Shown here: positions 5,729 to 57,797 of the stretch, in pieces
Layout: every line of letters starts with the position of its first letter
How positions within the stretch are numbered: the stretch's first letter is position 1
Source of the DNA: Candidatus Dormiibacterota bacterium
GTDB lineage: Bacteria; Chloroflexota; Dormibacteria; CF-121
Direction of reading: 5' to 3'
Assembly: GCA_036782775.1 (NCBI GenBank)
Contig: DAIPYJ010000011.1
Span: 1,317-65,316 of the forward strand
Length of the DNA: 64,000 nucleotides
Translations under genes and position numbers: made by a program
Notes under the pieces: model-generated
Told to the model about the DNA's origin: nothing
Databases searched by the model: none
Seen by the model: the letters and a program-made list of their open reading frames with translations, nothing else

Positions 5729-5773
5729 GCAGAACTAGACCGTGTCGGTCATTTGGATTCAGCGGCGAGAGCG

Positions 5774-41109: not shown

Positions 41110-41982
41110 GTGTCGCTTGGGATACGGCGGACCTGGCTCGGAATTGCAGCCGCGGCAGGCGCCCTCTTCCTGGCTGCGCTCGCCGCGTTCATTTTGGCCC
41201 CGGATGGCCATTTCGCGATCGGCGTCGAATCCGCTTCGTCAGCCGCTTCCGCGCTCGCCCAGCGTCCCAGTCAGTCGCTGCCTCGGATCTACGCCCTCTT
41301 CGCCGGCATGGTGGCCGCCTTCAATCCGTGCGGATTCGCCCTGTTACCGGCGTATCTAGGCCTTTACCTTCAGGATGACCGCGGCCGCCGTCGTTCGATC
41401 GCCACCACCATCTCGACCCCGCTCAAGGTATCGCTCAGCGTCACCGCCGCCTTCGTCGCGGTGTTCGGTCTGGTCGGGCTTGCGGTTGGCGTCGCGGGAA
41501 CAGCGATCTCATCAGTGCTTCCGCTGGTTGGGTTCATCATCGGCGTCGTCCTTATCGTAGTCGGCGGTGCGGTTCTGTCAGGCTGGAGCCTGGACACAGC
41601 CAGCACGACCAAGCTTGCCGACCGGCTCGGGCCGGCCGCCGGTCGCACCACCATGTCTGGATATTTCGCCTACGGGATCGCCTACGCGCTGGCATCCCTT
41701 GGCTGCACCTTGCCGGTCTTTCTCACCGTCCTTGGGCTTGCACCCCTTGCCGGCGGCCTGCTTGGCGGACTGCTGCAATTTCTGCTCTATGGCATCGGCA
41801 TGGCCGTCGTCCTGGCGGTACTGACGATCGCGGCCGCCCTCTTCAAGACCGAGCTCTTGCGCCGACTGCGTGGCGTCGGACGGATCATCGAGCCAGCCGG
41901 CGCCATCTTGCTTTTGCTCGTCGGCGCTTACGTGGTCTATTACTGGGTTACCCTTGGCGGACTCTTCCGTGGCACTGCCTGA
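41110..41982 (+). CDS. CcdA/DsbD-beta-like transmembrane thiol-disulfide electron carrier
   Basis: AFNPCGFALLPAY and ASLGCTLPVF, the two CcdA Cys motifs. Confidence 0.88.
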   Translation: MSLGIRRTWLGIAAAAGALFLAALAAFILAPDGHFAIGVESASSAASALAQRPSQSLPRIYALFAGMVAAFNPCGFALLPAYLGLYLQDDRGRRRSIATTISTPLKVSLSVTAAFVAVFGLVGLAVGVAGTAISSVLPLVGFIIGVVLIVVGGAVLSGWSLDTASTTKLADRLGPAAGRTTMSGYFAYGIAYALASLGCTLPVFLTVLGLAPLAGGLLGGLLQFLLYGIGMAVVLAVLTIAAALFKTELLRRLRGVGRIIEPAGAILLLLVGAYVVYYWVTLGGLFRGTA

Positions 41983-42676
41983 TCCCGAGAGCACGCCCGG
42001 TGTCGGTTTGCGGATTGAGATTCGCGGCCTGAGCCACGAGTACGGAACGCCTCACGCAAGGGTCCAGGCACTGACGGACATCTCATTCGAGGTGTCCGCT
42101 GGTGATTACGTAGCCCTCATGGGTCCGTCCGGCGCCGGCAAAAGCACCTTGCTGGCCCTCCTCGGTGGGCTCGACCGCCCTCAAGAGGGAACGTTGGCCA
42201 TCGACGGGCGCGATATGCGGGCGCTCAGTCGTGATCAGCTGGCCGAGTATCGGCGCACCACGGTTGGCTTCGTATTCCAGCACTTCGGGCTGGTCGACCT
42301 GCTGACCGCTGCCGAGAACGTCGAGCTGGCCTTGTCATTGGCGGGCGTGCCTCCGCACCAGCGGCGGCAACACGTCGGTGCCCTGCTGTCCTCCGTCGGC
42401 CTGCTCGAGCGACGCAACCACCGGCCATCGTCGCTCAGCGGCGGTGAGCGTCAACGGGTCGCGATCGCGCGGGCGCTCGCCAATGATCCACGGTTGCTCC
42501 TCGCGGACGAGCCGACTGGAAATCTCGATAGCAAGACCGCCGTCGGCGTCATGGACCTGCTCGAGAGCCTCCGGCGTGAGCGCGGTTGCACTCTCCTGGT
42601 GGTCACCCACAATCCGCTGGTCGCTGCTCGCGCCGATCGCCGCGTCGTCATCGATTCTGGCCGGATCGTCCTATGA
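41969..42676 (+). CDS. ABC ATPase (LolD/MacB-type)
   Basis: GPSGAGKST, LSGGERQRV, LLADEPTGNLD motifs. Confidence 0.95.
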   Translation: MALPDPESTPGVGLRIEIRGLSHEYGTPHARVQALTDISFEVSAGDYVALMGPSGAGKSTLLALLGGLDRPQEGTLAIDGRDMRALSRDQLAEYRRTTVGFVFQHFGLVDLLTAAENVELALSLAGVPPHQRRQHVGALLSSVGLLERRNHRPSSLSGGERQRVAIARALANDPRLLLADEPTGNLDSKTAVGVMDLLESLRRERGCTLLVVTHNPLVAARADRRVVIDSGRIVL

Positions 42677-44010
42677 GCTGGCGAGACGAACTGACGCTGG
42701 CGCTACGAAGCCTGCTGCGTCGCCCCGGACGGACGGCAATCACCCTGTTGGCGGTCGTTCTGGGGACCGGGCTGCTGGTCGCATTGGGAAGCGTCGGCGC
42801 GACGGCGGATTCCCGCATCGTCAGCCAGCTGAGCAAGGGTGGTCCGGCAGCGGCGATCAAGGTGGCGGCTGCCCTTCCAAACCCCGGGCAGCTCGACAGT
42901 GACAACCTTCAGGCCGGCGCTCCGAAGAACATCGACGACGCGGCGGTGGGAGCCATTCGGCGCGCGCCCTATGTCGCCTCGGTGGTACCGTTCCTGGCGG
43001 CTCCGGTGCTCGCCATTCCACCGCCGCAGGGTCTGTCCGCGGTACCAGGTACCAACGGTGAGACGCCCATCTTGCCGAATTGGATCTTCGACGCCATGGT
43101 TGGCACCGACCTGAGTCAGGTGAACAACCTCCCGATCACGGTCCTCGCCGGCCGGCTGCCGAGCCTCCATTCGCTGGACGAAGTCGCGGTGACGCAAGGG
43201 TACCTCGATCATCTTCATCTCGATGTCCACCATCCGGGAGTCGTGCTCGGGACGGAGATCGAGGTCGGAATGCCGCAATCGCACGTCATCAATGGCAACC
43301 TGCGGCGCCAGGCGCGCTGGATCAAGGCCCGGGTCGTCGGCGTCGTCGCCCAACAAGTCGGCGACGGCGAATTTCTGGTTCCCCTCGAGCAGGCGCAGAT
43401 CGCGCGGGGATGGGCGCTACAAGGGATCAGTGACGGCGATGATCCGTTGCCGGTTTCGCCTTATTCCGGCCTGGTGGTCGTGGCGGGCAGTCTCGACCAG
43501 GTGCATACAGTCCGCGCCGAGATCACCGTCCTCGGATATGCCACCAGTGCCCCCGAGCATCTGGTTGCATCCGTGCAGAAATATCTCCATGTGGTCGATA
43601 TCGTTCTCGGTGGCATCGGCACCATCGCCCTGGTGATCGCCTGCCTGGGGATCGCGAACGCTTTACTTGCCGCCGTCCGCGAACGCCGGCGGGAAATTGG
43701 GGTGCTGAAAGCCATCGGGGCACGCGACCAGGACATCCTTCGCTGGTTTCTCATCGAGGCGCTCGCGGTGGGAGCTCTGGGCGGCGCGATCGGCACGTTG
43801 CTCGGCGTCCTGGTTGCGGAAGGGCTTGGTCAATCCGTCAACCACTATCTCCTGACCCAGGGGTTGCAAAGCGTGTCGCTGGGCGAGGTCTCGCCGGCTC
43901 TGCTCGCCGCCGGTGTCCTTGGCACGGTCTTGCTCGCGTTGCTGGCTGCGGTCGCGCCGGCGCTACAGGCGGCGCGGCTGCCTGCCCTCGAGGCGGTGAG
44001 CGCGGCATGA
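42673..44010 (+). CDS. FtsX/MacB-type ABC permease
   Basis: N-terminal TM, large extracytoplasmic domain, ERRREIGVLKAIGA; ATGA overlap. Confidence 0.92.
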   Translation: MSWRDELTLALRSLLRRPGRTAITLLAVVLGTGLLVALGSVGATADSRIVSQLSKGGPAAAIKVAAALPNPGQLDSDNLQAGAPKNIDDAAVGAIRRAPYVASVVPFLAAPVLAIPPPQGLSAVPGTNGETPILPNWIFDAMVGTDLSQVNNLPITVLAGRLPSLHSLDEVAVTQGYLDHLHLDVHHPGVVLGTEIEVGMPQSHVINGNLRRQARWIKARVVGVVAQQVGDGEFLVPLEQAQIARGWALQGISDGDDPLPVSPYSGLVVVAGSLDQVHTVRAEITVLGYATSAPEHLVASVQKYLHVVDIVLGGIGTIALVIACLGIANALLAAVRERRREIGVLKAIGARDQDILRWFLIEALAVGALGGAIGTLLGVLVAEGLGQSVNHYLLTQGLQSVSLGEVSPALLAAGVLGTVLLALLAAVAPALQAARLPALEAVSAA

Positions 44011-44768
44011 GGTTGCGGCTGAGCTCGCTTTGCCTGCTGAGCCTCGTCCTGACGCTGGCGGCCTGCACATCGCTTACTCCAACGGGAGCCCGGCGGTCGA
44101 CGCCAAGTCCGAGACCCGCTGCCGTGGCTGCGCCCGTGGTCTATGCCGCGCTCGGGGCGAGCGAGACGGTTGGCGTCGGGGTGGGTGATCACCTCCGGCA
44201 GGCCTGGCCGCAGATCTTCTTCAACATCGCCTTGCCGGATTCGGCGGTCTTTTACAACTTCGGATTCCCTGGCGCGACGACCGCCGACGCGCTGCAGCTG
44301 GAACTGCCGGCGGCGATTGGCGTCCATCCGACGATCGTCACCATCTGGCTCAACGTCAATGATCTGATCGCGGGCGTTTCACCAGTCACCTACGAGACCG
44401 AGCTGCAGCAGTTAGTCCAGCGGTTGCGAGCCGCCGGTACTCGCGAGATTCTGATCGCGAATACCCCCTACCTCGATCGGCTCCCTGCGTATCTCAGCTG
44501 CAATGCGCCATCCGGGTCGCTCCACTGTCCCTTCCCCGCAGAGGCGCCGACCGCAGCCCAGCTCAACGCCATGGTCGACGCCTACAACGCCGGCATCCAA
44601 TGCGTAGCAGCCGAGGAATCCGCGGTTGTTGTCGACCTGCACACGCAGGGAGAATTGCCCGATCTCCATCCCGACTATCTCAGCGCGGATGGCCTTCACC
44701 CCAATGCCAGGGGTTACGCCGCGATCGCCTCGGCCTTCAAGGCGGCGCTGGCCGGGAAGACGCCTTAG
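44007..44768 (+). CDS. SGNH/GDSL hydrolase lipoprotein
   Basis: Lipobox LAAC; ALGASETVG, WLNVND, DGLHP motifs. Confidence 0.88.
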   Translation: MRLRLSSLCLLSLVLTLAACTSLTPTGARRSTPSPRPAAVAAPVVYAALGASETVGVGVGDHLRQAWPQIFFNIALPDSAVFYNFGFPGATTADALQLELPAAIGVHPTIVTIWLNVNDLIAGVSPVTYETELQQLVQRLRAAGTREILIANTPYLDRLPAYLSCNAPSGSLHCPFPAEAPTAAQLNAMVDAYNAGIQCVAAEESAVVVDLHTQGELPDLHPDYLSADGLHPNARGYAAIASAFKAALAGKTP

Positions 44769-44850
44769 ATTTCCTTAATAGCGCCTTCACGTTTCCGCCG
44801 TATATCGGTTTGGGATGGGAAAGGGATCGGCGAGCTTGAGCGCAACCGGC

Positions 44851-45339
44851 ATGCGCGAGTTGAGTCCGCTCTTCGGCCGGGCAATCGCCGCCCTTCGCAT
44901 CTGGTTCGGCATCGTCTTTCTCACCAACGGCCTTGCCAAGTTCATCCCCTCGATCGCGAAGACGCCCGTCGGATTCTTGATCGACCTCAATGGAGCCAAA
45001 GGCATCCTTATCTTCTACGCGCACCGGAATCCGGTCCCGCCCTATCGCAGCCTGGTCGACCAGCTGATCGCGCCCAACTGGAGCCTCTTTGGGCCCGCCG
45101 AGGCGGTGGTTGAGGTCGTCGTTGGCGTTCTGCTGATCGTCGGCCTGTTCGCGACGCTGGCTGCCCTGGTCGGTGCGCTGCTCCAACTACATCTGCAGTT
45201 CGCGTCGCTCTGGAGCAACCAGTGGGTCTTCGAGTACTCGGTCGAATGGGTGCCCTTGCTGGTGTTGGCCGCGATCCACGCCGGCCGCTGGTTCGGCCTC
45301 GATTCGCGTCGTCCGAGGGCGTCCGGATGGCTGGGGTGA
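44851..45339 (+). CDS. DoxX/TQO small-subunit-like membrane protein
   Basis: LRIWFGIVFLTNGLAK, EVVVGVLLIVGL, GRWFGLDS motifs. Start could be as early as 44815. Confidence 0.8.
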   Translation: MRELSPLFGRAIAALRIWFGIVFLTNGLAKFIPSIAKTPVGFLIDLNGAKGILIFYAHRNPVPPYRSLVDQLIAPNWSLFGPAEAVVEVVVGVLLIVGLFATLAALVGALLQLHLQFASLWSNQWVFEYSVEWVPLLVLAAIHAGRWFGLDSRRPRASGWLG

Positions 45340-46016
45340 GCCGGGTCGCCGTGATCATCCCGGCGCTCAACGAGGCCGGGGCCATCGGCGATGTTGTCGC
45401 CGAGATAAGGGCGACGGTCGATGCCGAGGTGATCGTCGTCGACAACGGCAGTCAGGATCAGACCGCCACAGTGGCGCGCCGAGCCGGTGCCGTGGTCGTG
45501 ACCTGTCCGGAGCGCGGGTATGGCAAGGCCTGCCTCCGGGGAATCGCCGAGGCGCGCGGGAATGATGTCCTGGTCTTCATCGATGGCGACGGCAGCATGC
45601 CGGCGGTGGACATCCCCGCTTTGGTGGGGCCCATCCTCGATGGCCGAGCGGACATCGTCTGCGGCGCCCGGCGCGCTGACCCTGGCACGATGCCAGCGCA
45701 CCAGCGATGGGGTAACCGCCTTTCGATGGCGCTGCTGCGCTCGCTCTACGGCGTCAGGCTCTCTGACCTCGGTCCCTTCCGCGCGGTTCGGGCGACCACC
45801 CTCGCGAGTCTCGCCATGCGGGCGTCGAAGTTTGCCTGGCCGGCGGAAATGCTGGCCCGGGCGGCAAAAGTGCAGGCGCGGATCATCGAGGTGCCGGTCG
45901 GCTACCGCGCACGTGCAGCCGGCCGGTCGAAGGTTGGCGGTACCCTTCGCGGATCGATCGGGGCCGGCATGGGAATCGTCGGATCGCTGGCCTGGGTGCG
46001 GATGTTACCGCGGTGA
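45336..46016 (+). CDS. Glycosyltransferase family 2 (polyprenol-phosphate glycosyltransferase-like)
   Basis: IIPALNE, VDNGSQD, RGYGKAC, FIDGDGS, DLGPFRA motifs. Confidence 0.92.
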   Translation: MSRVAVIIPALNEAGAIGDVVAEIRATVDAEVIVVDNGSQDQTATVARRAGAVVVTCPERGYGKACLRGIAEARGNDVLVFIDGDGSMPAVDIPALVGPILDGRADIVCGARRADPGTMPAHQRWGNRLSMALLRSLYGVRLSDLGPFRAVRATTLASLAMRASKFAWPAEMLARAAKVQARIIEVPVGYRARAAGRSKVGGTLRGSIGAGMGIVGSLAWVRMLPR

Positions 46017-46696
46017 GCGACAGCCCATTTCGGAGCTGGTCATCCGACGAATGGCTGATCCTCCTGGCGCGCTGGCCGCAGCCGGGTGTCGGCAAGTCGC
46101 GCCTGGCGGCCGGCATTGGGGATGAGCAGGCGTATCGGCTCGAACAGGCCTTCCTGATGGACACCATCGGATGGGCTTCGCTGGCGCCGGCGCACCTGAT
46201 CACGTTCACCCCGGCTGGAGCTGCAGCGCAATTTCGCCGCTGCGCCCCGCGCGCGCATTTGCGGCGCCAGGCGGAGGGAGACCTGGGCGTCCGCATTCAT
46301 CAGGCGTTCGTGGATGCCTTCAGTCTCGGAGCCCGTCGGGCCGTCATCGTCGGCAGCGACAGCCCGAATCTTCCATATGCGATCGTCGATTCCTGCAGGT
46401 CGGGGCTGCCGACGGCGGACGCGATGATCGCGCCGACCAGCGACGGCGGCTTCTGCGCCCTCGGCCTCACCCGGCCGGCACCCGAACTGTTTGTGGGGGT
46501 TGCCTGGAGCACGCCAGACGTTTGCGCGCAGGTCATGGCGAATGCCCGTGCCGCCGGGCTCGAGATCCGCTCAACCGAACCCTGGTACGACGTCGACGAC
46601 GTGCTGGGTCTCAATCGCCTGCGCTTCGATCTGTCCCTCGACGGTGAATTCGCCCCCAATACCAGCGCAACCCTGGCCCGAATCAACCGGAAGTAA
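46013..46696 (+). CDS. DUF2064 / TIGR04282-type transferase (CofC/MobA-like fold)
   Basis: GVGKSRLAA, QAEGDLGVRI, IVGSDSP, PTSDGGF, WYDVDD motifs. Confidence 0.88.
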   Translation: MSDSPFRSWSSDEWLILLARWPQPGVGKSRLAAGIGDEQAYRLEQAFLMDTIGWASLAPAHLITFTPAGAAAQFRRCAPRAHLRRQAEGDLGVRIHQAFVDAFSLGARRAVIVGSDSPNLPYAIVDSCRSGLPTADAMIAPTSDGGFCALGLTRPAPELFVGVAWSTPDVCAQVMANARAAGLEIRSTEPWYDVDDVLGLNRLRFDLSLDGEFAPNTSATLARINRK

Positions 46697-46706: not shown

Positions 46707-47855
46707 ATGGCTGTCATTACCGAAGATTCGACGACCGTTGAGCAACGACTGGTGAGCGTGCTCGACGTCGCGCGTGCCAACGCGGGATCGGTCGACGCGG
46801 AGGGAGCCTTTCCGACGGAAACCATTGCGGCACTCCGAAGCTCGGGCCTGCTCGGCCTGACGGTGTCGGAAGGCGACGGTGGGCTCGGCGCCGGCCCCCG
46901 CGAATTCGTCCAGGTGGTCTCCGCACTGGCCGAAGCCTGCGGCTCGAGCGCAATGATCTACCTCATGCACGTCAGCGCCGTGGCGTGCATCACGGGCGCA
47001 CCGCCTCCGGGCATTCCGCACGTGCTGTCGCGTCTGGCATCGGGCGACTGGCTCGGGACGCTCGCCTTCAGCGAGCGCGGTTCGAGAAGCCATTTCTGGG
47101 CGCCGGTCTCGCGCGAGGTCTACGAAGGCGGCTCCATCCGGGTCCGGGCCTCCAAAAGCTGGGTCACCTCGGCCGGCCACGCCGATGTCTACGTCGTGTC
47201 GACGCTGGCCGCCGGGGATCGCGGTCCCACGGACAGCAACCTCTATGTCGTGCGCGGCGACGAGCCAGGGATGACGGTCGCGGCGCCCTGGCGCGGGATG
47301 GGCATGCGGGGCAATGCCTCGTCGCCAATGGCGGTCGATCTTCTGGTTGGCGAAGACCGGCGTATTGGCGCCGATGGCAGCGGCTTCAAATCGATGATGG
47401 AGGCGGTCTTGCCCTGGTTCAACCTGGGCAACGCCGCGGTCTCTCTCGGGCTGGCGCGTGCGGCCGTCAAGGCCGCCATCAAGCACGCCTCGGGCACGCG
47501 CTTCGAACATACCGGCGATGCCCTGGCGAACCTGCCAACCATTCGCGCCCGGCTGGCGCGCATGCAGATCGAGCTCGACGCAAACGACGCGTACCTGCGC
47601 CACGCCGCCGATAGCGTGGCTTCGCCGGATGACGGAACACTGTTGCAGGTCCTCGGCGTCAAGGCGGCGGCGAACGACGCCGCGCTCGACATCACCGATG
47701 GCGCCATGCGCGTATGCGGCGGCGCGGCGTTCTCGCAGCAGCTCGCCATCGACCGCTTTTTCCGCGACGCGCGAGCCGGCCACGTCATGGCGCCCACCGC
47801 GGACGTGCTATACGACTTTTACGGCAGGGCCATCACCGGCCTGCCCCTGTTCTGA
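46707..47855 (+). CDS. Acyl-CoA dehydrogenase-fold flavoprotein (FadE16/Rv1679-like)
   Basis: TAAGGAGG RBS; AFSERGSRS, KSWVTSAG, GMRGNAS, RFFRDARAGHVMAPT motifs. Confidence 0.88.
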   Translation: MAVITEDSTTVEQRLVSVLDVARANAGSVDAEGAFPTETIAALRSSGLLGLTVSEGDGGLGAGPREFVQVVSALAEACGSSAMIYLMHVSAVACITGAPPPGIPHVLSRLASGDWLGTLAFSERGSRSHFWAPVSREVYEGGSIRVRASKSWVTSAGHADVYVVSTLAAGDRGPTDSNLYVVRGDEPGMTVAAPWRGMGMRGNASSPMAVDLLVGEDRRIGADGSGFKSMMEAVLPWFNLGNAAVSLGLARAAVKAAIKHASGTRFEHTGDALANLPTIRARLARMQIELDANDAYLRHAADSVASPDDGTLLQVLGVKAAANDAALDITDGAMRVCGGAAFSQQLAIDRFFRDARAGHVMAPTADVLYDFYGRAITGLPLF

Positions 47856-47864
47856 GGTCGATCC

Positions 47865-48677
47865 ATGGCAAAGCCGTTGGTGGTTGGCGCGGTCGCCTAT
47901 ACCGCGAACGTCGTCCCCATCTGGGAGGGGATCCGCGAGTACTTCCGCGAGAGCGACGCCCCCATGGACTTTGTGCTTTTTTCTAACTACGAGCGCCAGG
48001 TCGATGCCTTACTCGAAGGGCAGATCGAGATCGCCTGGAACACCAACCTGGCGTGGGTCCGATGCCTGGGGCTCACGTCGGGCACCTGCCAGGCGCTGGC
48101 GATGCGCGACGCCGACCTCGTGTTCAAATCCGTCTTCGTCTCGCGCGCCGGCGCCGGGTTGCGCGGACTCGCGTCGCTGCGAGGACGACGATTGGCGCTC
48201 GGATCGCGCGACTCGGCGCAAGCCGCGATCCTCCCCCTCTATTTCTTGCATCACGCCGGCCTGGTCGACGGCGCCGTCACCGTGAGGCGGTTCGACACCG
48301 ACGTGGGCAAGCACGGCGATACCGGTCGCAGCGAGCTCGATGCCATCCGTGCCGTGTTGAGTGACCAGGCCGATGCGGCAGCCATCGGCATTAGCACCTG
48401 GGAAAGCGTCGGGAAGGGCGAGCTTGCCGATAGAGCACTGGAAGCCTTCTGGGAATCGCCCGAGTACTGCCACTGCAACTTCACCGCGCTTCAGTCCCTG
48501 GACCATGAGCGGAGCGAGGCCTGGGTCAGTCATCTGCTTCGGATGGACTGGAACATTCCCGCGCATCGCCGCATCCTCGAGCTCGAAGGCCTCAAGGCGT
48601 GGGTCCGTCCGCAGCTGGCGGGCTACGAGCCGCTGCTGGCGGCGGTCAAAGAGCAGCAGATCCCGTTGCGATGGTGA
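47865..48677 (+). CDS. PhnD/SsuA solute-binding-fold protein without signal peptide (Rv1680-like)
   Basis: Starts MAKPLVVGAVAY; YERQVDALL, IAWNTNLAW, GKHGDT, YCHCNFT motifs. Confidence 0.82.
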   Translation: MAKPLVVGAVAYTANVVPIWEGIREYFRESDAPMDFVLFSNYERQVDALLEGQIEIAWNTNLAWVRCLGLTSGTCQALAMRDADLVFKSVFVSRAGAGLRGLASLRGRRLALGSRDSAQAAILPLYFLHHAGLVDGAVTVRRFDTDVGKHGDTGRSELDAIRAVLSDQADAAAIGISTWESVGKGELADRALEAFWESPEYCHCNFTALQSLDHERSEAWVSHLLRMDWNIPAHRRILELEGLKAWVRPQLAGYEPLLAAVKEQQIPLRW

Positions 48678-49642
48678 TTCTCGACCTCATCGACGCGTTG
48701 CAGCCATTGGCGGACGGAGCTGTGGCCAGGGTTCCGCTGGATTCGGCGGCGGACATCGAGAGGGTCCGTACCTGGTGCGCGCGCAGCGGCAACACCGTGG
48801 TGCGCGTCAACGATGACTGGGTCGAGGTGCGGCGAGGACGTTTGCGGGAGCCGGCGGGGCTGGAAACCATCCCGGCACGGCTCTGGCTCTATACGAACTT
48901 CGATTGCAACCTGGCCTGTGATTACTGTTGTGTCCGCTCGTCCCCAACAGCGAATCGGCGCGCTCTCGGATTGGAGCGCATCGGGCCGCTGGTCGGGGAA
49001 GCGCCGGGGGCCGGCGTGACCGAGCTCTTCCTCACCGGCGGCGAACCCTTCATCCTGCCCGACATCGACGCCATCGTGCGCAGCTGCGTAACAGTGCTGC
49101 CCACGACCCTGCTGACCAACGGCATGCTGTTTCAACGGGGCCGCCGGCTCGAAGCCTTGCGCCGGATGCCGCGCGATGGTTTCGCGCTTCAGATCAGCCT
49201 CGATTCCCCGACGCCGGAACTCCACGACCGCCATCGCGGTCAGGGCTCGTGGGAGAAGGCGATTGCCGGCATCCGCCTCGCAAGGGCCGAAGGCTTTCGG
49301 GTACGCGTGGCAACCACCCTGACCGAAGAGGGGTCGATCGAGTCGGAGCTCCGCGGTTTTCTTGATGAGCTCGGCATCCGGCGCGACGACCAGGTGATTC
49401 GGCCGCAGGCCCGTCGCGGGCTGGCACAAAAGGGTGTCGTGCTGACGGTGCCCGCCCTCATCCCCGAAGTCACGGTGACCGCCGACGGTGTCTACTGGCA
49501 CCCGGTCGCCGCCGACGACGATGACATGCTGGTGACCCGCTCGCTCTTTCCACTGGCCGACGCCGTGAACCAGGTGCGACATCGGCATCTCGAGCAGCAG
49601 CAGAAAGTGGAGGCGCTGGCGGAGGCGTTCGTATGCGCTTAG
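48671..49642 (+). CDS. Radical SAM protein with short TusA/SirA-like N-terminal domain (MoeX/Rv1681-like)
   Basis: CNLACDYC (CxxxCxxC), TGGEP, TNG, QISLDS; N-terminal TWCARSGNTVV; ends FVCA. Confidence 0.9.
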   Translation: MVILDLIDALQPLADGAVARVPLDSAADIERVRTWCARSGNTVVRVNDDWVEVRRGRLREPAGLETIPARLWLYTNFDCNLACDYCCVRSSPTANRRALGLERIGPLVGEAPGAGVTELFLTGGEPFILPDIDAIVRSCVTVLPTTLLTNGMLFQRGRRLEALRRMPRDGFALQISLDSPTPELHDRHRGQGSWEKAIAGIRLARAEGFRVRVATTLTEEGSIESELRGFLDELGIRRDDQVIRPQARRGLAQKGVVLTVPALIPEVTVTADGVYWHPVAADDDDMLVTRSLFPLADAVNQVRHRHLEQQQKVEALAEAFVCA

Positions 49643-51054
49643 TCGCCCGCGACGAGATCGCACGGACGGAACGGATTGCGACAAGCGAGATCGCGCAGCC
49701 CAGGCCTCACCAAGTGCTCATCTGGGCGCTCGCGCTGGGAGCATCGTTTGCCTATTTCGGATTGGCGCTGGTCCGCCATTTGAGCTTTCACAGCGCCGCC
49801 TACGACCTGGGCTTTTTCGACCAGGTTCTCTGGAACGCCTCACGCGGCCATGGGCTTCGATCGACCTTCATCCCCTATGTCTTTTTTGGCGAGCATTTTG
49901 AACCCGCCCTGCTGCTCTTCATCCCGATCTATCGCGTCGTCGCGTCGCCCCTCTGGCTGCTGGGCGCCCAGTCGATTGCGCTTGGGCTCGCCGCGGTCCC
50001 GCTGCACGCCATCGCCCGGCGCCTGCTCGATTTGCAACGAGCGTGGCTCGTGGTCGGCGCATACCTGCTGCAACTCGGAATCGCGCGCGCCGTCGCGAGT
50101 GATTTCCACACGGAGACACTCGCCGTGCCCTTTGTCTTCCTTGCCATCCTCTTCGCGCTCCAGCGACGCTGGCATTGGTTTGCGCTGTTTGCCATCATTC
50201 CCATGCTCGCCAAGGAAGACGGCGTCCTGGTAACGATCGGCATCGCCATCCTGGCGCTCATCATGACGCGCCAGCGCATCAGCCTCGTGCCGGCAATCGC
50301 CGCGCTGGGGTACGGCATCGTCGTGCTCTTCTGGGCCATGCCCGTTATCCGACACGGCGCACCGGGAGACCTGGTCCTTCGTTATGCGTACCTGGGATCG
50401 ACGCCCGAGCAGGTGGTGCTCCATACGCTGACGCGACCTTGGCTCTGGCTGGAGAACTTGGCGAGCTCCCCGGCGTTGCCGGCTCTCCTGCTCTTGCTCG
50501 CCGCCGTCGGATTTCTTCCCATCTTCCGGCCAGCCGCGATGGGGGCCGCGTTGCTGCCCCTGATCCCGGCGTTCCTATCCACCGATCCGTATCAGGCCGG
50601 ACTGCGGCTGCAATATTCGATCCCCGCGGTGCCCTTGTTGATGATCGCCGCGCTGCTCGGCTGGCAGCGCCTGCCCGCGATGAGCGGCGGCGTGATGGTC
50701 ATACTCGGTGCCGCAGCGACCTGGGTCGTGCTGGGGCCGGTCCTACCGCGCCTCGGGACCGACGTGCCGGGTCTCGGGCGCGCCGCTGACGTCACTCGTA
50801 TCTTGCGTCTCATCCCGTCGGGCGATGAGGTCGGGGCGAGTTCGAATCTCGTGCCCCATCTGTCGGAGCGCCCGTCGATCTGGGAGTTTCCCGCCGGGTT
50901 CGGCGCCCGGTGGATTGTCATCGATCGGTCAGCGAGTGTCTCGCAGGAAAGTCAGGCGCATGGGTACGCCGCGGCAATTGCGCGGTTGCCCGCGGCCGGC
51001 TACACGATGGAGGCAGAAGCGGACGGCGTGACCGTCTGGCGCAAGTCGCCATGA
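49633..51054 (+). CDS. DUF2079 membrane protein (predicted GT-C-like glycosyltransferase)
   Basis: YDLGFFDQVLWN, GEHFEP, DFH, KED motifs; about 10 TM. Confidence 0.85.
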   Translation: MRLVARDEIARTERIATSEIAQPRPHQVLIWALALGASFAYFGLALVRHLSFHSAAYDLGFFDQVLWNASRGHGLRSTFIPYVFFGEHFEPALLLFIPIYRVVASPLWLLGAQSIALGLAAVPLHAIARRLLDLQRAWLVVGAYLLQLGIARAVASDFHTETLAVPFVFLAILFALQRRWHWFALFAIIPMLAKEDGVLVTIGIAILALIMTRQRISLVPAIAALGYGIVVLFWAMPVIRHGAPGDLVLRYAYLGSTPEQVVLHTLTRPWLWLENLASSPALPALLLLLAAVGFLPIFRPAAMGAALLPLIPAFLSTDPYQAGLRLQYSIPAVPLLMIAALLGWQRLPAMSGGVMVILGAAATWVVLGPVLPRLGTDVPGLGRAADVTRILRLIPSGDEVGASSNLVPHLSERPSIWEFPAGFGARWIVIDRSASVSQESQAHGYAAAIARLPAAGYTMEAEADGVTVWRKSP

Positions 51055-52163
51055 CACGAGTCCTTGTGACTGGCGGCGCCGGATTCATCGGCTCGCATCT
51101 GGTTGACGCCCTGCTGACGCGAGGATTCGACGTCCGCGTCCTCGACAACCTCGATCCCCAGGCACACGAAGGCGGTCGCGCGCGATTCCTTTCGAGCGAT
51201 GCCGAGTTGATGGTCGGCGATCTACGCGACCGCGACGCCGTTCGCCGCGCCCTGAACGGGATGGAGCTGGTCTTCCACCAGGCGGGCATGGTGGGAAACG
51301 GCCAGTCGATGTACGAGATCCATCGCTATGTCGAGGTCAACGGCGGCGGCACCGCCATCCTCATGGAAGAGATCGTGGCGCGTCGTGATCGCATCCGCCG
51401 GGTGATTGCGGCGTCGTCGATGGTGGTTTACGGCGAGGGCGCCTACTGGTGTGCTCAGCACGGCGAGTGCCGGGGAACGCGATCGGCGGAAGACCTGCGG
51501 GCGCGCCGGTGGGAGCCCCTTTGCCAGATCTGCGGCGCCGCGCTGACGCCGAGGCCGACAAATGAAGAGTGGCCCCTGCAGCCGACCTCGCCGTATGCGA
51601 TTTCAAAGCGCGATTCTGAGGAGATCACGCTGGTCAGTGCCCGTGCGCACGGCGTGGACGCGGTGGCGTTGCGCTACCTCAACGTCTACGGTCCGCGCCA
51701 GGCGCTTGGCAACCCATACACGGGGGTCGCTGCCGTCTTCTGCGCCCGATTGCTCAGTGGCCGAGCGCCGCTCATCTTCGAGGACGGCGGCCAGCGACGC
51801 GACCTGGTTCATGTCTCGGATATCGTGCGCGCCAATCTCCTCGCCATGGACTCGCCATTGGCCTCCGGTTATCCGATCAACATTGGGACCGGAACCTCGG
51901 TTACCGTCCTGGAGCTCGCCCAAACGTTAGCGCGAGGATTGGGTATCGATCACGCCCCCGAAATCTCCGGCCTCTACCGCGCCGGGGACATTCGGCACTG
52001 CTATGCGGATATCAGCCGTGCCGAACGGCTTCTCGGGTTCAGCGCCGAGGCTGATCGCGACGAGTGCCTGAGCGAGCTCGCCCAATGGGTTGCTACGCAG
52101 CCGTCAGTGGATCGCTCGGAGGGAGCGCTTGCCGCACTCAAGGACCGGGGGCTGATCCGCTGA
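51051..52163 (+). CDS. NAD-dependent NDP-sugar epimerase/dehydratase
   Basis: TGGAGFIGSHL, YAISK, RYLNVYGPRQ, RDLVHVSD motifs. Confidence 0.93.
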   Translation: MTRVLVTGGAGFIGSHLVDALLTRGFDVRVLDNLDPQAHEGGRARFLSSDAELMVGDLRDRDAVRRALNGMELVFHQAGMVGNGQSMYEIHRYVEVNGGGTAILMEEIVARRDRIRRVIAASSMVVYGEGAYWCAQHGECRGTRSAEDLRARRWEPLCQICGAALTPRPTNEEWPLQPTSPYAISKRDSEEITLVSARAHGVDAVALRYLNVYGPRQALGNPYTGVAAVFCARLLSGRAPLIFEDGGQRRDLVHVSDIVRANLLAMDSPLASGYPINIGTGTSVTVLELAQTLARGLGIDHAPEISGLYRAGDIRHCYADISRAERLLGFSAEADRDECLSELAQWVATQPSVDRSEGALAALKDRGLIR

Positions 52164-52168
52164 TCGAT

Positions 52169-53164
52169 GTGGCTCACCCAGAATCGACTGGCTGGCGATT
52201 GGCGATGGCGGTGACGCTGGCGCTCTCGCTCGCAGCCTGCGGCGCATCATCAGCACCACGCGTCGGTGAGCCGGCAGCGCCGGCAACGGTTACCGCCTCA
52301 CCCGCCGGAAGGCTGGTCGCGGTCGGCGCAGGGCCGGAGGGGATCGCCGTCGACCCCGAAGCCGGCCTGATCGCGGTCGCCGTCCGCTCGCCCGCCGCAA
52401 TCGTGGTGCTCGATCGCAGCGGATCAACCCTTCGTCGGGTGGCGCTACCCTCCTCCGCGCGCCATCTTCGTTTCAGCACATCGGGCTCGCTGTTGGTCCC
52501 GGCTGAGCAGGCCCAGCAGTTGATCCAGGTCGACGTGACGAGCGGACGCATCGTGAGCTCTACGCCTGTTGGGCACCAGCCGCATGATGCCGTTCCGTTC
52601 GGCAGCAGGGTTTTCGTCACCAACGAGTTCTCCGACACGCTGTCCGTCATCGAGGCCGTGCAGGTGGTGGCAACGATCCCTGCGCCGAAGCAGCCCGGTG
52701 GCATCGCGGCATCGACCAGCGTGCTGGCGGTGCTCGGGGTGCGATCACACACCGTGCGCTTCATCGATGCCGGTTCCCTGGCGACGATCGCGACGCTGCC
52801 CGCCGGGGCCGGGCCAACGCATGTCGTGGGCGATGGCGAGGGCCGATTCTTCGTCACCGACACGGTTGGCAATGCCCTGCTGACCTATGCCTCGTCTCCG
52901 GCGCCGCATCTGGTAAGCCGGCGGACGGTGCAGGGAACGCCCTATGGCATCGCCCTTGACACCGTCCATGCCCGACTGTTCCTGACGCTGACGGCTCGTA
53001 ACCAGGCAGTCGAATACCACCTAGTCGGGGACACCCTCGCCGAGGTCGCTCGATTTTCCACCCCACGACAGCCGAACACCGTCGCGGCCGACCCCGTCAG
53101 CGGGACGGTCTTCGTCACCGGTACCGCCGACGGTGTCGTGCAGATCATGTCAAGCTTCAACTGA
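52169..53164 (+). CDS. YncE/YVTN beta-propeller lipoprotein
   Basis: Lipobox LAAC; repeated P-x-GIA / PHD blades, FVTN. Confidence 0.82.
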   Translation: MAHPESTGWRLAMAVTLALSLAACGASSAPRVGEPAAPATVTASPAGRLVAVGAGPEGIAVDPEAGLIAVAVRSPAAIVVLDRSGSTLRRVALPSSARHLRFSTSGSLLVPAEQAQQLIQVDVTSGRIVSSTPVGHQPHDAVPFGSRVFVTNEFSDTLSVIEAVQVVATIPAPKQPGGIAASTSVLAVLGVRSHTVRFIDAGSLATIATLPAGAGPTHVVGDGEGRFFVTDTVGNALLTYASSPAPHLVSRRTVQGTPYGIALDTVHARLFLTLTARNQAVEYHLVGDTLAEVARFSTPRQPNTVAADPVSGTVFVTGTADGVVQIMSSFN

Positions 53165-53832
53165 TGGCTACCCGCGTGCTTCTCATCGACGACGATCCGA
53201 AGATCGTTTCACTGCTGCAGCGTGGCCTCGCCTTCGAGGGCTTCGAGGTGACCACCGCACCCGACGGCACCGACGGATTGAACGCGGCGCGGACCACTCG
53301 GCCACAGCTGGTATTGCTCGACATCGCGATGCCCGAGCCGGACGGATTCGAAGTCTGCCGCCGGCTGCGGCTTGCCACCGACGTGCCGGTCATCATGCTG
53401 ACCGCCCGCGACGACGTGGCCGATAAGGTGAGCGCGCTGAATCTCGGCGCGGACGACTATGTGGCCAAGCCGTTCGCCTTTGACGAGCTGCTGGCCCGGA
53501 TTCGCGCCGTGCTCCGCCGCCATCAGGATGGCGATGAGCCGCTCACCTACCTCGACCTTGTCGTCGATCCCCGGACGCGCGAGGCCCAGCGCGCCGGCCG
53601 GGTCATCGACTTGACCGGCCGCGAGTTCGACCTGCTGCTCTTCTTCATGCGTCATCCGCGGCAGGTGCTGACCCGCCAGCAGCTGATCGACCGCGTCTGG
53701 GGGTTTGACGAATCGCCGGAGACAAACGCGCTCGACGTCCATATCGGCCACCTGCGGCAAAAGCTCGAAGGCGCGGACGGCACCCGTTTGATCCAGACCA
53801 TCCGCGGCATCGGCTATGCGCTTCGCGGGTAA
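53164..53832 (+). CDS. OmpR/MprA-type response regulator
   Basis: LIDDD, LLDIAMP, DDYVAKPF, IQTIRGIGY motifs. Confidence 0.95.
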   Translation: MATRVLLIDDDPKIVSLLQRGLAFEGFEVTTAPDGTDGLNAARTTRPQLVLLDIAMPEPDGFEVCRRLRLATDVPVIMLTARDDVADKVSALNLGADDYVAKPFAFDELLARIRAVLRRHQDGDEPLTYLDLVVDPRTREAQRAGRVIDLTGREFDLLLFFMRHPRQVLTRQQLIDRVWGFDESPETNALDVHIGHLRQKLEGADGTRLIQTIRGIGYALRG

Positions 53833-55228
53833 GGCGCTCGGCGTCGATGTTCGGTTGGCGCTCTGGTTCAGCGTCATCATGGGCGCGGTCCTCGCCGCCC
53901 TGAGCCTGACTGTCTTCCAGCTCACCAAGGACAGCCTGCTCCGCGAAGCCGATCAGGATGTCCGCCAACGCGCCACTCTCATCGCGGCGGCACAACCGAT
54001 CGAAAGCTCGCAAATCCTGATGCCGCGCACCGATGTCTTCAGCGCCCCAGATATCTTTGTCCAGATCGTCGATCCAAACGGCCACGTGCTGAGCACCTCG
54101 AGCAATCTGTCGGGACACGTTCTTCCTTTTATTCCCTCAGCGATCCGGGCCGGCAATGTCACCGAGCAGCAAGTCAGTGGCCGGATGCTCATCCTCTGTG
54201 GCCGACCGATCACCTCTGGCGGCATGCTCAAGGGCTACGTGCTCGTCGCACGCTCGCCGCAAACGATTTATGTCGCCCTGGATCGGCTGCGTTCGATTCT
54301 CTATCCAGGCGCTGCGCTCGCGCTGATCCTGGCTGGAATCGCCGGGTGGCTCCTGGTGCGCAGGGCACTCGGACCGCTGCGGCGGATTGGCAGCGCCGCC
54401 GCCCGGATCGCCGCGACCCGGGATCACACCCAACGCATTGGATATACCGGACCACCCGATGAGATTGGCCGCGTCGCGCAGACGATCGACGGCATGCTCA
54501 AGTCACTAGAGGAAGCGCACGCACAGGTCCAGGCGTCGCATGACGCACAGAAACGGTTTCTGGCTGAGATCTCCCACGAACTCCGCACGCCGTTGACCAT
54601 CATGCTTTCCTCGTTGGACCTGCTCGTCAGGACTGGACGGTCCGACCCCGAATTCGCCAGGCGCGCGATCGCCGATATTCGAGTCGAGGCCGACCGAATG
54701 GCGCGGATGGTCAGCCATCTCCTGATCATGGCGCGTTCCGACGCGGGCGCGCCCGCGGCTCCACATCGCCCGGTGATCGTGGTCGACGTCTTGACTGATG
54801 CATGCCGGCAACTCAGCCAGACAAACGGACGCTTGCGCTATCGGAACCTCGAGCGGATCGACGATGCCGTCGTCGATGGCGACAGCGACTATCTGAAGCA
54901 GCTGTTTCTGATCCTGCTCGATAACGCCTTCAAATACACACCGCCCGATGGGCATGTCGAAGTCAGCGGCACCTTCAACGACGGAACCGTCGCCATCGCT
55001 GTCGCCGACGAGGGGATGGGCATTCCTCCCGAGGATTTGCCGCATCTATTCGAGCGCTTCTACCGCGGGAAAAATGCGCACAGCCAGGGACTCGGCTTAG
55101 GGCTTGCCATCGCGCGACATATCGCGATGCAACACGGGGGGCGAATCGACGCTGAAAGCAAGCCAGGCAGTGGTAGCCGGTTTACGGTATCACTGCCGCT
55201 CGCGACGCCCGTAGAGAGCTTAGGCTAA
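53816..55228 (+). CDS. HAMP sensor histidine kinase
   Basis: Two TM, HAMP, SHELRTPL, DNAFKY, GLGLGL motifs. Confidence 0.95.
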   Translation: MRFAGKALGVDVRLALWFSVIMGAVLAALSLTVFQLTKDSLLREADQDVRQRATLIAAAQPIESSQILMPRTDVFSAPDIFVQIVDPNGHVLSTSSNLSGHVLPFIPSAIRAGNVTEQQVSGRMLILCGRPITSGGMLKGYVLVARSPQTIYVALDRLRSILYPGAALALILAGIAGWLLVRRALGPLRRIGSAAARIAATRDHTQRIGYTGPPDEIGRVAQTIDGMLKSLEEAHAQVQASHDAQKRFLAEISHELRTPLTIMLSSLDLLVRTGRSDPEFARRAIADIRVEADRMARMVSHLLIMARSDAGAPAAPHRPVIVVDVLTDACRQLSQTNGRLRYRNLERIDDAVVDGDSDYLKQLFLILLDNAFKYTPPDGHVEVSGTFNDGTVAIAVADEGMGIPPEDLPHLFERFYRGKNAHSQGLGLGLAIARHIAMQHGGRIDAESKPGSGSRFTVSLPLATPVESLG

Positions 55229-55250
55229 GCGGGCCCCACGCCTGGCTGCG

Positions 55251-55910
55251 ATGCTTAGATGGGGACCAATGAGCTGGCGTATCCGGTCGACCTGGCGCCG
55301 CTCGTGGGCGCTGCTGGTTGCGATCGGGCTGATCGCCAGTCTCGGCCTCCTTGGATTGACGGCGTACAACTGGGTCGAGATTCCGTTCCTCAAGTTCGAG
55401 CTTGCTGCCGGCCAGTGCAAGTTCGGTCCACCCTTAGCCGGCGTCTACTTCCCCAGCCGCCTCCATGTGCTGAATCGCTGCATGACGGTGAGCGGCGTCG
55501 TCGATTGTTTCAAGGTCGAGCCTGATGGTGACGTCCACCTGCGCGTCCGGTTGGATCCTCAGTTCTCGGGGCTGCTGAAACCGGCCAACGCGCTGCAGAC
55601 CTGCGCCGACCATTTAGGCCCACACATCGTCGTCGAGATCATTCCGCAGCACCCCGAAGGTCTTCTCTTCAGAAATAACGATGCCGACGCCGGAGGGTTC
55701 ATCGATCCACAAATGCCCGCTCCCGGCGAGCACGTCACGGTCACCGGGCCCTACGTCATCGACACCAACATCCTTCACCGTGTCCTCTACCAGGGGAGGG
55801 TCGCTGAGAATTGGGCAGAGATTCATCCCGCCTGGGCGATCCGGGTCGATCAACCAGTCAGCCCTGCCCAGCCGAACAAGTTCGGCCCGGCGTTTGGAGA
55901 ATCTGGTTGA
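55251..55910 (+). CDS. Membrane-anchored hypothetical protein, OB-fold-like
   Basis: N-terminal TM; EPDGDVH, VVEIIP, WAEIHP motifs. Confidence 0.65.
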   Translation: MLRWGPMSWRIRSTWRRSWALLVAIGLIASLGLLGLTAYNWVEIPFLKFELAAGQCKFGPPLAGVYFPSRLHVLNRCMTVSGVVDCFKVEPDGDVHLRVRLDPQFSGLLKPANALQTCADHLGPHIVVEIIPQHPEGLLFRNNDADAGGFIDPQMPAPGEHVTVTGPYVIDTNILHRVLYQGRVAENWAEIHPAWAIRVDQPVSPAQPNKFGPAFGESG

Positions 55911-55924
55911 CCTTCGGCAAAAAG

Positions 55925-56878: not shown

Positions 56879-57016
56879 CGTCTTAATAGTGGCGGATGGC
56901 AATCGGCGGCCATGATGGCTGATCGGAGGCATGCAAGTCGTCGGTCAGCTAGCTCAAGATCAGCCTTGCGTTGCAGCTTGCCGCAGAAGCCGGTGGCGTC
57001 GTATGTTTGGCAGCAA

Positions 57017-57322
57017 ATGGATGATGCCAAGCCCGAAGTTGCGGCGGAAAAGGCGATACAGCCCGATCGGCTTCTTCCGGGCGAGGCGCGAGACACTCGT
57101 CTCTTGGAAGACGCAGAGCACTGGTTGGCCGTATACACGGAACTCGTACAGGGCAAACAGTCAATGGTGGCTGCCACACGTCAAACGATCGATGCGATGA
57201 GTCGGAATGATGCTCGCCGCGAGGTGGAATCGACGGATATGGTCGTGCTCGCACGCGAGCTCGACCGCTTTCGCCGTGGAATGGACTTTTGGAAGACTCG
57301 CATCCACGAGTTGCAGGGTTGA
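57017..57322 (+). CDS. Small helical hypothetical protein (paralog of 29533-29784)
   Basis: LLPGE...EDAEHWLAVYTEL...RFRRGMDFWKTR. Confidence 0.7.
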   Translation: MDDAKPEVAAEKAIQPDRLLPGEARDTRLLEDAEHWLAVYTELVQGKQSMVAATRQTIDAMSRNDARREVESTDMVVLARELDRFRRGMDFWKTRIHELQG

Positions 57323-57436
57323 TTAGTTACAGGAACGGCGCTACGGCAAGACAGCCCTAGCAGTCAGCCTGCCGACGCTCTGAATTCGTTGGCTTGAGAC
57401 TCTGGCGGAAGGGTGCTAGGGTGATTTTTGAGATTT

Positions 57437-57715: not shown

Positions 57716-57797
57716 TCGCGTTGAGCCACCCGGTTGATAAACATGGAGGAAGGCCCGGGTAGCCGGGCTTTCCTCCGACGGCATCGGGAGCTAAGGC

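Follow-up and report, generated by a model that had tools for sequence, protein, structure and literature searches.

The ACAD-fold, PhnD-fold and radical SAM genes of a Candidatus Dormiibacterota contig: a copy of the Rv1678-Rv1681 cassette and a candidate cytoplasmic multi-enzyme module

In a 64,000-nt stretch of DNA from a Candidatus Dormiibacterota bacterium (hereafter the window), three co-directional genes lie together on the + strand between positions 46707 and 49642. They encode an acyl-CoA dehydrogenase (ACAD)-fold protein, a PhnD-fold protein, which has the fold of solute-binding proteins (SBP), and a radical S-adenosylmethionine (SAM) protein, and are here called the triad. An earlier note on this DNA had read them as a cytoplasmic enzyme module and not as lipid catabolism plus transport. 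As judged from sequence comparison, the triad is a copy of the Rv1678-Rv1681 cassette of Mycobacterium tuberculosis, whose curated families are already known, and is not new as a gene set. We hold with moderate confidence that it is a conserved cytoplasmic multi-enzyme cassette, predicted to form a complex, and neither a beta-oxidation enzyme nor a transporter component. Its genes and motifs are the following:

46707..47855, + strand: ACAD-fold flavoprotein of the Rv1679/FadE16 family, without the catalytic Glu (382 aa; NF049984)
47778..47798, + strand: GHVMAPT motif, residues 358-364 of the ACAD-fold protein, its M-A-P-T invariant
47865..48677, + strand: signal-less PhnD-fold protein of the Rv1680 'SBP-like' family (270 aa; NF049985)
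48465..48476, + strand: YCHC motif, residues 201-204 of the SBP, with His203/Cys204 at the ligand positions of PhnD1 Asp203 and capping Tyr204
48671..49642, + strand: Rv1681-family radical SAM protein (323 aa counted from the ATG; NF049973)
48905..48928, + strand: CxxxCxxC radical SAM motif (CNLACDYC), residues 79-86 of the radical SAM protein

The ACAD-fold gene is preceded, at a distance of 6 nt, by a strong Shine-Dalgarno sequence (AAGGAGG), a gap of 9 nt separates this gene from the SBP gene, and the ATG of the radical SAM gene overlaps the SBP stop by 7 nt (ATGGTGA), in line with the coupling to a CxxxCxxC radical SAM gene described in the earlier note. All three proteins match, over their full length and above the cut-offs, NCBIfam families named after M. 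tuberculosis genes: Rv1679 acyl-CoA dehydrogenase (NF049984, 608.7 bits vs a cut-off of 600, residues 12-382), Rv1680 SBP-like (NF049985, 458.3 vs 400) and Rv1681 radical SAM (NF049973, 477.6 vs 380, with C79, C83 and C86 invariant). A further model, NF049986 ('Rv1678 family membrane protein'), matches the mycobacterial neighbour of the triad, and from these Rv1678-Rv1681 models it follows that the NCBI curators recognised the cassette and avoid a transporter label for the middle protein. A genome scan recovered 80 loci in Actinomycetota and Dormibacterota, and wherever the contig allows, the order ACAD-SBP-radical SAM was unvarying across the two phyla; a relative whose SBP is 80% identical carries the same gene array as the window. 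The fixed order in 80 loci and the curated families are evidence of joint action of the three proteins and uphold the earlier view of an enzyme module, but the analogies it had offered, DszC, MqnA/MqnD and THI5, found no support as memberships.

In the searched literature we found no functional study of Rv1679, Rv1680 or Rv1681, and no two of them were ever mentioned together. Single-gene mentions present Rv1681 (MoeX) as an antigen in the urine of tuberculosis patients, Rv1679 as part of a hypoxia proteome, and Rv1680 both in a list of efflux genes and under the description 'putative phosphonate transporter component' (PMC8562490, PMC12195134). The comparisons below suggest that this annotation of Rv1680 is probably wrong, and that the filing of Rv1679 under lipid metabolism is likely wrong as well.

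The ACAD-fold protein carries GHVMAPT at residues 358-364, where many acyl-CoA dehydrogenases have the catalytic I-Y-E-G-T, as had been noticed earlier. HMMER aligned AGHVMAPTADV to ITEIYEGTSEV of butyryl-CoA dehydrogenase, which places Ala362 at the position of the catalytic Glu (Y-E-G-T) of medium-chain acyl-CoA dehydrogenase (MCAD). The other known base position, in helix G of the isovaleryl-CoA (IVD) and long-chain (LCAD) dehydrogenases, falls on Phe238, MCAD T255 and IVD E254 being equivalent positions; LPWFNL stands opposite LDGGRI in the butyryl-CoA dehydrogenase alignment. Throughout 89 family members, drawn from both the radical SAM and the di-iron clade, Ala362 is invariant at the MCAD-type position, and so are M-A-P-T, P-x-F (with Phe238), His88, Ser122-Glu123, Asn203 and His260. 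A catalytic Glu was found at neither position, in the alignment or among the 89 sequences; the earlier note had allowed for one at the LCAD/IVD-type position, and the invariant Phe238 stands there instead.

Pfam recognises three ACAD domains in this protein, and its FAD-type motifs are kept (K-x-W-V-T-S-A-G; G-G-x-x-F...R-D-A-R). HMMER scores it at 118 bits for true short-chain ACADs and at 63 bits for DszC, which places it closer to the former, and its second-tier NCBIfam matches (3-sulfinopropanoyl-CoA desulfinase, acryloyl-CoA reductase and SfnB) all score far under their cut-offs. Membership in a flavin-monooxygenase family found no support either (DszC 77 vs 850 bits, SfnB 95 vs 431 bits). 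Neighbour clustering of the genome loci showed no electron transfer flavoprotein genes conserved near the triad, and likewise no conserved flavin reductase. The protein thus appears not to be a conventional acyl-CoA dehydrogenase. It resembles the Glu-less variants of the fold, namely 3-sulfinopropionyl-CoA desulfinase, DszC/SfnB and the VlmH-type N-hydroxylases (VlmH has the ACAD fold), in being likewise without the Glu base; unlike them, it scores under all their cut-offs and has invariant residues of its own (His88, S-E-x-G-S-R-S-H-F-W, P-W-F and M-A-P-T).

The second protein has the type II periplasmic-binding-protein fold and belongs to the PhnD lineage (Pfam PF12974, 8.7e-29). Its AlphaFold2 (AF2) model (pLDDT 93) retrieved PhnD1, PtxB, ArrX and AioX as top Foldseek matches, and also HtxB and E. 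coli PhnD, the best being 7s6g (E 1.4e-24; TM 0.74). None of DszB, THI5 and MqnA/MqnD was among the top 50 Foldseek PDB matches, and faint NMT1/THI5 Pfam matches were seen in some homologues. The earlier note had described a protein with neither signal peptide nor lipobox and with no cognate type-I permease, and this description held throughout. Since the open reading frame (ORF) cannot extend upstream and beta-strand 1 of the model begins at residue 5, no signal peptide is possible; no lipobox was found in the window protein, and the N-terminal extensions of its homologues are short, polar and without either a lipobox or a hydrophobic core. No PhnC/PhnE importer genes are present in the window, where the only ABC genes in the vicinity (41870-44010) encode a MacB/LolD-type ATPase and an FtsX permease, and no permease was conserved among the recurrent neighbours of 166 triad-related loci. 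Sequence and model agree in predicting a cytoplasmic protein. An exported SBP served by a transporter elsewhere, which the earlier note had named as the finding that would speak against it, was not encountered: there is no export signal, and no transporter for it in the window or among the recurrent neighbours.

The phosphate ligands of Synechococcus PhnD1 (Y44, S124, T125, S126, H156, D203 and the capping Y204; PMC10284923) were carried onto the window SBP through the HMMER alignment, and correspond as follows:

PhnD1 Y44: Y42 in the window SBP (kept)
PhnD1 S124: S117 (kept)
PhnD1 T125: A118
PhnD1 S126: Q119
PhnD1 H156: S156
PhnD1 D203: H203
PhnD1 Y204 (capping): C204

Two of the seven ligands are thus retained (Y42 and S117), so that the phosph(on)ate ligand set as a whole is not kept, and the TIGR03431 score is 27 vs a cut-off of 261. 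His203 and Cys204 lie at the PhnD1 sites that touch the ligand's variable substituent. Across 142 SBP sequences from both clades, Y42, R81, D116, S117, G148, H150, G151, D152, H203 and C204 are invariant, and the rebuilt pocket comprises His203-Cys204, Lys149-His150-Gly-Asp152, Asp116-Ser117, Tyr42 and Arg81. The Y-C-H-C motif reported earlier is present at residues 201-204 and its His203/Cys204 pair is invariant, but Cys202 varies (C/S/D/N in the 142 sequences), and since this first Cys varies the conserved motif is x-x-H-C-x-F and not Y-C-H-C. Because M-A-P-T is invariant in 89 sequences and His203/Cys204 in 142 homologues, these motifs are not due to chance.

SBP identity reaches 56-84% across two phyla, mostly about 60-70%, which is far above the usual and suggests that the protein is unusually constrained for a binding protein. 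Its cleft has the look of a catalytic site, or of one for a cofactor or metal, and not of a transport receptor. With the periplasmic members of the PhnD family (PhnD1, PtxB, HtxB, AioX and ArrX) it shares fold and lineage, and it retains Tyr42 and Ser117 at anion-binding positions; unlike them, it is predicted to be cytoplasmic, lacks an ABC partner, has five of seven ligands replaced and places His-Cys in the pocket.

The third protein has a standard radical SAM core with CxxxCxxC and GGE (Pfam PF04055 alone). Further invariant cysteines are Cys36, Cys87, Cys139 and Cys322; no SPASM/twitch domain was found, Cys322 being the single invariant Cys of the C-terminal part. Its NCBIfam scores for ArsS (35 vs 300 bits) and HpnH (63 vs 225) are far under the cut-offs. 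MoaA, the source of the old name MoeX, was rejected as its identity (TIGR02666, 56 vs 284 bits; the C-terminal Cys triad is missing). The AF2 model (pLDDT 85) found BlsE, SkfB, MoaA, SuiB, EpeE, AbmM and viperin as its nearest structures, all of them weak matches, which do not appear to discriminate between substrate classes.

Residues 1-55 of this protein resemble TusA (PF01206; Pfam E 8.8e-05, 22.7 bits vs a gathering threshold of 28.6). The match begins at profile position 14, past the catalytic C-P-x-P motif, and no conserved Cys stands at the position of the TusA catalytic Cys in either the radical SAM or the di-iron clade, pointing to a degenerate TusA-like domain and not a TusA sulfur carrier.

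In seven genome loci, L074-L080, the third gene joins a TusA-like domain (Pfam E 2e-06) to a ferritin-like domain instead of a radical SAM domain, with an invariant di-iron ligand pattern, E...DExRH...E...DExRH. Compared profile to profile, both third-gene families align in their N-terminal domains over 61 columns (E 3e-05), suggesting that the catalytic domain has been swapped behind a common adaptor domain. The di-iron triad belongs to a large family found in Planctomycetota (Fimbriiglobus ruber), Armatimonadota and Actinomycetota, and the di-iron gene always follows the ACAD- and PhnD-fold genes. No other proteins are as closely related to the Rv1679 and Rv1680 families as these two partners, yet they score under their cut-offs (444-476 vs 600 and 364-398 vs 400), and since the di-iron protein matches no NCBIfam model the clade appears to be uncurated. 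Among solved structures, the di-iron domain comes closest to a VlmB homologue (E 1.5e-07), with R2-like ligand-binding oxidases next. Pairs of radical SAM and O2-dependent enzymes that do the same job are known from the activation of class III and class I ribonucleotide reductases, from BchE and AcsF, and from anSME and FGE; here, likewise, two domains fill one slot, with the same N-terminal domain and the same two partners. Unlike in those pairs, both versions occur here in aerobic soil bacteria, and the di-iron version loses a partner, DoxX, treated below.

Beyond the triad, no neighbours are conserved in 86 di-iron loci. Two apparent fusions of the SBP with the TusA/di-iron protein, P0284 (L083:8001-10055) and P0347, were set aside as Rosetta-stone evidence, being likely assembly or gene-call artefacts: the P0284 junction reads as an out-of-frame SBP C-terminus (an apparent frameshift), and P0347 keeps just SBP residues 4-79 (an apparent internal deletion). 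In Fimbriiglobus ruber (L081:9556-13202) an Ssu-like set (NMT1-type binding protein, luciferase-like monooxygenase, permease and ATPase) lies divergently beside the triad; a sulfur-scavenging link based on it was rejected as evidence of general value, being a single case not seen in the other 85 di-iron loci. Other di-iron triads adjoin a small protein with a CDGSH-like iron-sulfur motif, C-x-C-G...C-D-E-S-H, recognised by eye (L079:8369-8692), an ISC iron-sulfur assembly operon (L085:10494-16440) and a protein with a sulfotransferase-like motif, P-S-K-S-G-T-T-W, also recognised by eye (L076:12077-12988); none of these three recurs among the di-iron loci.

Around the triad, the window holds further genes on the same strand:

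44815..45339, + strand: DoxX-family membrane protein, the fourth conserved cassette partner (Pfam DoxX 7.1e-07)
45327..46016, + strand: family 2 glycosyltransferase (GT2), polyprenyl-phosphate sugar synthase-like (Pfam Glycos_transf_2 1.8e-21)
46013..46696, + strand: DUF2064 / TIGR04282-family protein with a nucleotidyltransferase-like fold (Pfam DUF2064 5.3e-25)
49633..51054, + strand: DUF2079 polytopic membrane protein, likely a GT-C-type glycosyltransferase (Pfam DUF2079 3.9e-64)
51048..52163, + strand: NAD-dependent sugar epimerase/dehydratase (Pfam Epimerase 1.5e-48)

The earlier note had overlooked the DoxX partner, the TusA-like domain of the radical SAM protein and the surrounding glycosylation genes. 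Using sensitive queries and counting radical-SAM-type loci with at least 6 kb of flank on both sides, we found a DoxX homologue no more than 2 kb away from the triad in 38 of 40 loci, and in unbiased neighbour clustering its site was immediately upstream of the ACAD gene or immediately downstream of the radical SAM gene. No DoxX homologue was found in 33 di-iron-type loci (7 genome loci and 26 long metagenome or assembly loci), and this absence ties DoxX exclusively to the radical SAM version. The DoxX proteins of mycobacteria match NF049986, the model of the Rv1678 family. A small multi-pass membrane protein of ~110 aa, homologous to the C-terminus of Rv1678 and carrying the motif G-x-(G/N)-x-S-T, comes directly after DoxX or is fused to it in 37 loci (e.g. 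L001:1396-1740, L016:4992-5360 and L054:8485-8853); an ORF threshold of 90 aa misses it. A riboswitch in the gap between DoxX and ACAD was also considered and dismissed, as an Rfam scan of 7 loci gave tRNAs only and the gap encodes this small membrane protein. The module corresponding to the C-terminus of Rv1678 is absent from the window and from the Dormibacterota loci. M. tuberculosis Rv1678-Rv1681 and the window thus have the same gene order, motifs and DoxX-type partner; compared with Rv1678, however, the window DoxX is short, lacks the C-terminal membrane module and is split from the triad by the GT2 and DUF2064 genes. In 7 loci a major facilitator superfamily (MFS) transporter adjoins the cassette, and in an uncultured actinomycetote (L022:6204-17229) the whole unit of MFS transporter, DoxX, ACAD, SBP and radical SAM genes is tandemly duplicated.

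The window array runs DoxX, GT2, DUF2064, ACAD, SBP, radical SAM, DUF2079, NAD-epimerase, with most genes overlapping or nearly so. The GT2 ORF is open from 45222, its likely ATG at 45327 overlaps the DoxX stop, and its alignment to an Arthrobacter GT2 begins at 45345; its best NCBIfam matches (AglJ, a dolichyl-P hexose transferase, and PpgS) are each under cut-off. The DUF2064 start overlaps the GT2 stop, and the DUF2079 start overlaps the radical SAM stop by 10 nt; the DUF2079 gene has the same place in L167. The start/stop overlaps couple translation of the SBP with the radical SAM protein and of the latter with DUF2079.

These neighbours recall the pathway that caps mycobacterial lipoarabinomannan with methylthioxylose (MTX) and that handles an adenosine derived from SAM and substituted at its 5' position. 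We defined an MTX-like set of five genes, namely GT2, DUF2064, a GT-C-type membrane protein (GT87, DUF2079 or other), an MTAP paralogue and an epimerase, and in 15 of 45 well-flanked genome loci, the window included, at least three of the five lie no further than 10 kb from the triad. These 15 span at least nine families in two phyla (Micrococcaceae, Nanopelagicales, Jiangellales, Glycomycetaceae, Propionibacteriales, Nocardiaceae, Microbacteriaceae, Acidimicrobiia and Dormibacterota), and their arrangements differ. In L029 and L167 the MTX-like genes and the triad form one co-directional array. The genes of Ca. Aeolococcus gillhamiae run MTAP-GT2-DUF2064-GT-C-ACAD-SBP-radical SAM-DoxX. Epimerase homologues lie near the triad in 13 loci, and an MTAP paralogue is part of the L029 array and lies near 11 loci; no MTAP was found anywhere in the 64-kb window. 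Di-iron loci essentially lack the MTX-like genes.

Angala and colleagues reportedly assigned roles in the MTX pathway to Rv0535 (MTAP), Rv0536 and Rv0540 in 2017. The genes near the triad resemble this pathway and have the same parts list, with an MTAP paralogue in relatives. In the known pathway MtxS (Rv0539) makes polyprenyl-P-methylthioxylose and MtxT (Rv0541c) transfers it (PMC12088412, PMC8780516). The DUF2064 protein scores 154.6 bits for TIGR04282 vs a cut-off of 134; TIGR04282 and TIGR04283 are named in NCBIfam as arsenosugar-biosynthesis glycosyltransferase families. Both were originally defined by association with ArsS. The window has no ArsS, the adjacent radical SAM protein being the one that scores 35 vs 300, and we noticed no ArsM in those genes around the cassette that we examined, so that the name 'arsenosugar biosynthesis glycosyltransferase' for 46013-46696 is likely misleading. 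In lacking MTAP and ArsS, and in showing no ArsM among the genes examined, the window is unlike the MTX and the ArsS arsenosugar systems. In these lineages the cassette is thus co-expressed with neighbours that, since they resemble both pathways, would convert a 5'-substituted adenosine derived from SAM into a lipid-linked pentose, and since the cassette sits inside a glycan-gene operon, its radical SAM reaction or an adenosine-derived product is probably coupled to an MTX-like pathway in this lineage.

On the reading of a cytoplasmic multi-enzyme cassette, the PhnD-fold subunit would hold a small, probably anionic, ligand in its cleft, and the TusA-like domain would dock the radical (or oxidase) enzyme onto it. 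The chemistry would be started by a 5'-deoxyadenosyl radical or, in the sister clade, by a di-iron centre activated by O2, and the flavoprotein would perform or balance a redox step. DoxX would link the radical SAM version with the membrane, and perhaps also with the menaquinone pool, a link that O2 would make needless in the di-iron version. The chemistry is probably a radical-initiated redox reaction on a small anionic ligand, and all three proteins may act on one small metabolite. The di-iron swap speaks for hydrogen abstraction. The recurrent MTAP/DUF2064/GT2 neighbourhood, which is confined to the radical SAM version, speaks for adenosyl transfer or for a use of the 5'-deoxyadenosine product.

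Several points weigh against this reading. All of its mechanistic steps are ones we infer, the complex is putative and the two apparent SBP-di-iron fusions look like artefacts, and FAD binding by the ACAD-fold protein is judged from motifs. A radical SAM enzyme does not necessarily have the same function as a di-iron oxidase, and DoxX could be a mere membrane anchor. Moreover, glycosylation genes are missing near the triad in 25 of the 40 radical-SAM-type loci, and by their Rv numbers the cassette and the MTX genes are far apart in M. tuberculosis; the glycan link may on these two grounds be lineage-specific or indirect.

The conventional account would see a FadE16-like acyl-CoA dehydrogenase for lipid catabolism, an ABC binding protein for phosphonates or sulfonates and an unrelated MoaA-like radical SAM gene. 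It can appeal to matches with short-chain ACADs (E 3e-33) and PhnD (E 3e-20) in Pfam and the PDB, and to the published listing of Rv1680 as a phosphonate transporter component and efflux gene (PMC8562490, PMC12195134), yet we consider it very improbable, given a catalytic Glu at neither position, an SBP lacking signal peptide, lipobox and PhnC/PhnE, five of seven phosphate ligands replaced, synteny unvarying across two phyla and a MoaA score of 56 vs 284. Oxidation of organosulfur or other heteroatom compounds seems less far-fetched, though still decidedly unlikely. Here the flavoprotein would be an oxygenase or desulfinase like DszC/SfnB/MsuC or VlmH, the PhnD-fold protein would act in a DszB-like way through its Cys-His pair, and the di-iron or radical SAM enzyme would cleave or oxidise a C-S, C-P or N group for nutrient salvage. 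The second-tier matches to 3-sulfinopropanoyl-CoA desulfinase (108-150 bits) and SfnB (95-116 bits) recur, a TusA-like domain and a DoxX protein (related to a thiosulfate:quinone oxidoreductase subunit) are present, an Ssu-like operon adjoins the triad in Fimbriiglobus, and the di-iron domain is nearest to a homologue of VlmB (E 1.5e-07), which works with the flavin monooxygenase VlmH in valanimycin biosynthesis (PMC11705231). All these scores are however far under the family cut-offs, the TusA-like domain lacks the catalytic Cys, the Ssu neighbourhood is found in one of 86 di-iron loci, no flavin reductase is conserved nearby, and DszB, THI5 and MqnA are absent from the top 50 Foldseek matches.

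Somewhat better placed, if still rather unlikely in our estimate, is adenosyl transfer, in which the Rv1681-type enzyme, like ArsS, MqnE and HpnH, would attach the 5'-deoxyadenosyl radical to a substrate that the PhnD-fold protein holds, while the extra electron would be supplied or removed by the flavoprotein and DoxX, and MTAP, DUF2064, GT2, epimerase and GT-C proteins would turn the 5'-substituted adenosine into a lipid-linked 5-deoxy-pentose for an envelope glycan. The triad is embedded among a GT2 and a DUF2064 protein above the TIGR04282 cut-off, an MTAP paralogue belongs to the L029 array and lies near 11 loci, and the glycan-gene association is confined to the radical SAM version; the HpnH match is one of the stronger ones for the radical SAM protein (2.3e-17), adenosylation by the radical SAM enzyme ArsS is established (PMC12159101), and MtxS and MtxT make and transfer polyprenyl-P-methylthioxylose (PMC12088412, PMC8780516). 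Set against this, a di-iron domain cannot transfer adenosine, so that the sister clade would need another chemistry, the 64-kb window holds no MTAP, ArsS (35 vs 300) and HpnH (63 vs 225) score far under their cut-offs, and most loci have no glycosylation genes nearby. A bolder form of the cassette reading, which we rate as a long shot, sees a new radical enzyme on a binding-protein scaffold: a radical from the radical SAM or the R2/VlmB-like di-iron centre would attack Cys204 (with His203) or the held ligand, as in class III vs class I ribonucleotide reductase, the flavoprotein and DoxX/menaquinone would balance the electrons, and an adenosine-derived product would feed an MTX-like envelope glycan pathway in lineages like this one.

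As far as the searched databases and papers show, three features are undescribed: the sister clade with its di-iron domain, the dependence on DoxX and the operonic MTX-like link. Rv1678-Rv1681 are conserved genes of M. tuberculosis, and the cassette offers testable function hypotheses for all four; it is widespread in soil Actinomycetota and Dormibacterota, its di-iron sister reaching Planctomycetota and Armatimonadota. If the three proteins do form one enzyme, they would be a new case of a binding-protein fold recruited to catalysis, and its chemistry could be approached through the exchange of radical SAM for di-iron domains, through DoxX and through the connection with a sugar pathway that starts from SAM.

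Directly upstream of DoxX, on the same strand (41870-44768), lie genes for a MacB/LolD-type ABC ATPase, an FtsX/MacB_PCD permease and a GDSL lipase; since this trio also precedes the cassette in L029 and L167, it may share an envelope-related operon with it. Downstream of the epimerase, 52064-53164 encodes a YVTN/YncE-like beta-propeller with a lipoprotein-like N-terminus (LALSLAACGASS), followed at 53164-55228 by an OmpR-type response regulator and a histidine kinase; a homologous pair lies near the cassette in ~6 other loci, and this two-component system was discarded as a functional clue, being of a generic OmpR type and uninformative. The G+C content is ~0.60-0.62 at window positions 1-6000 and 54000-58000, vs 0.65-0.67 around the cassette.

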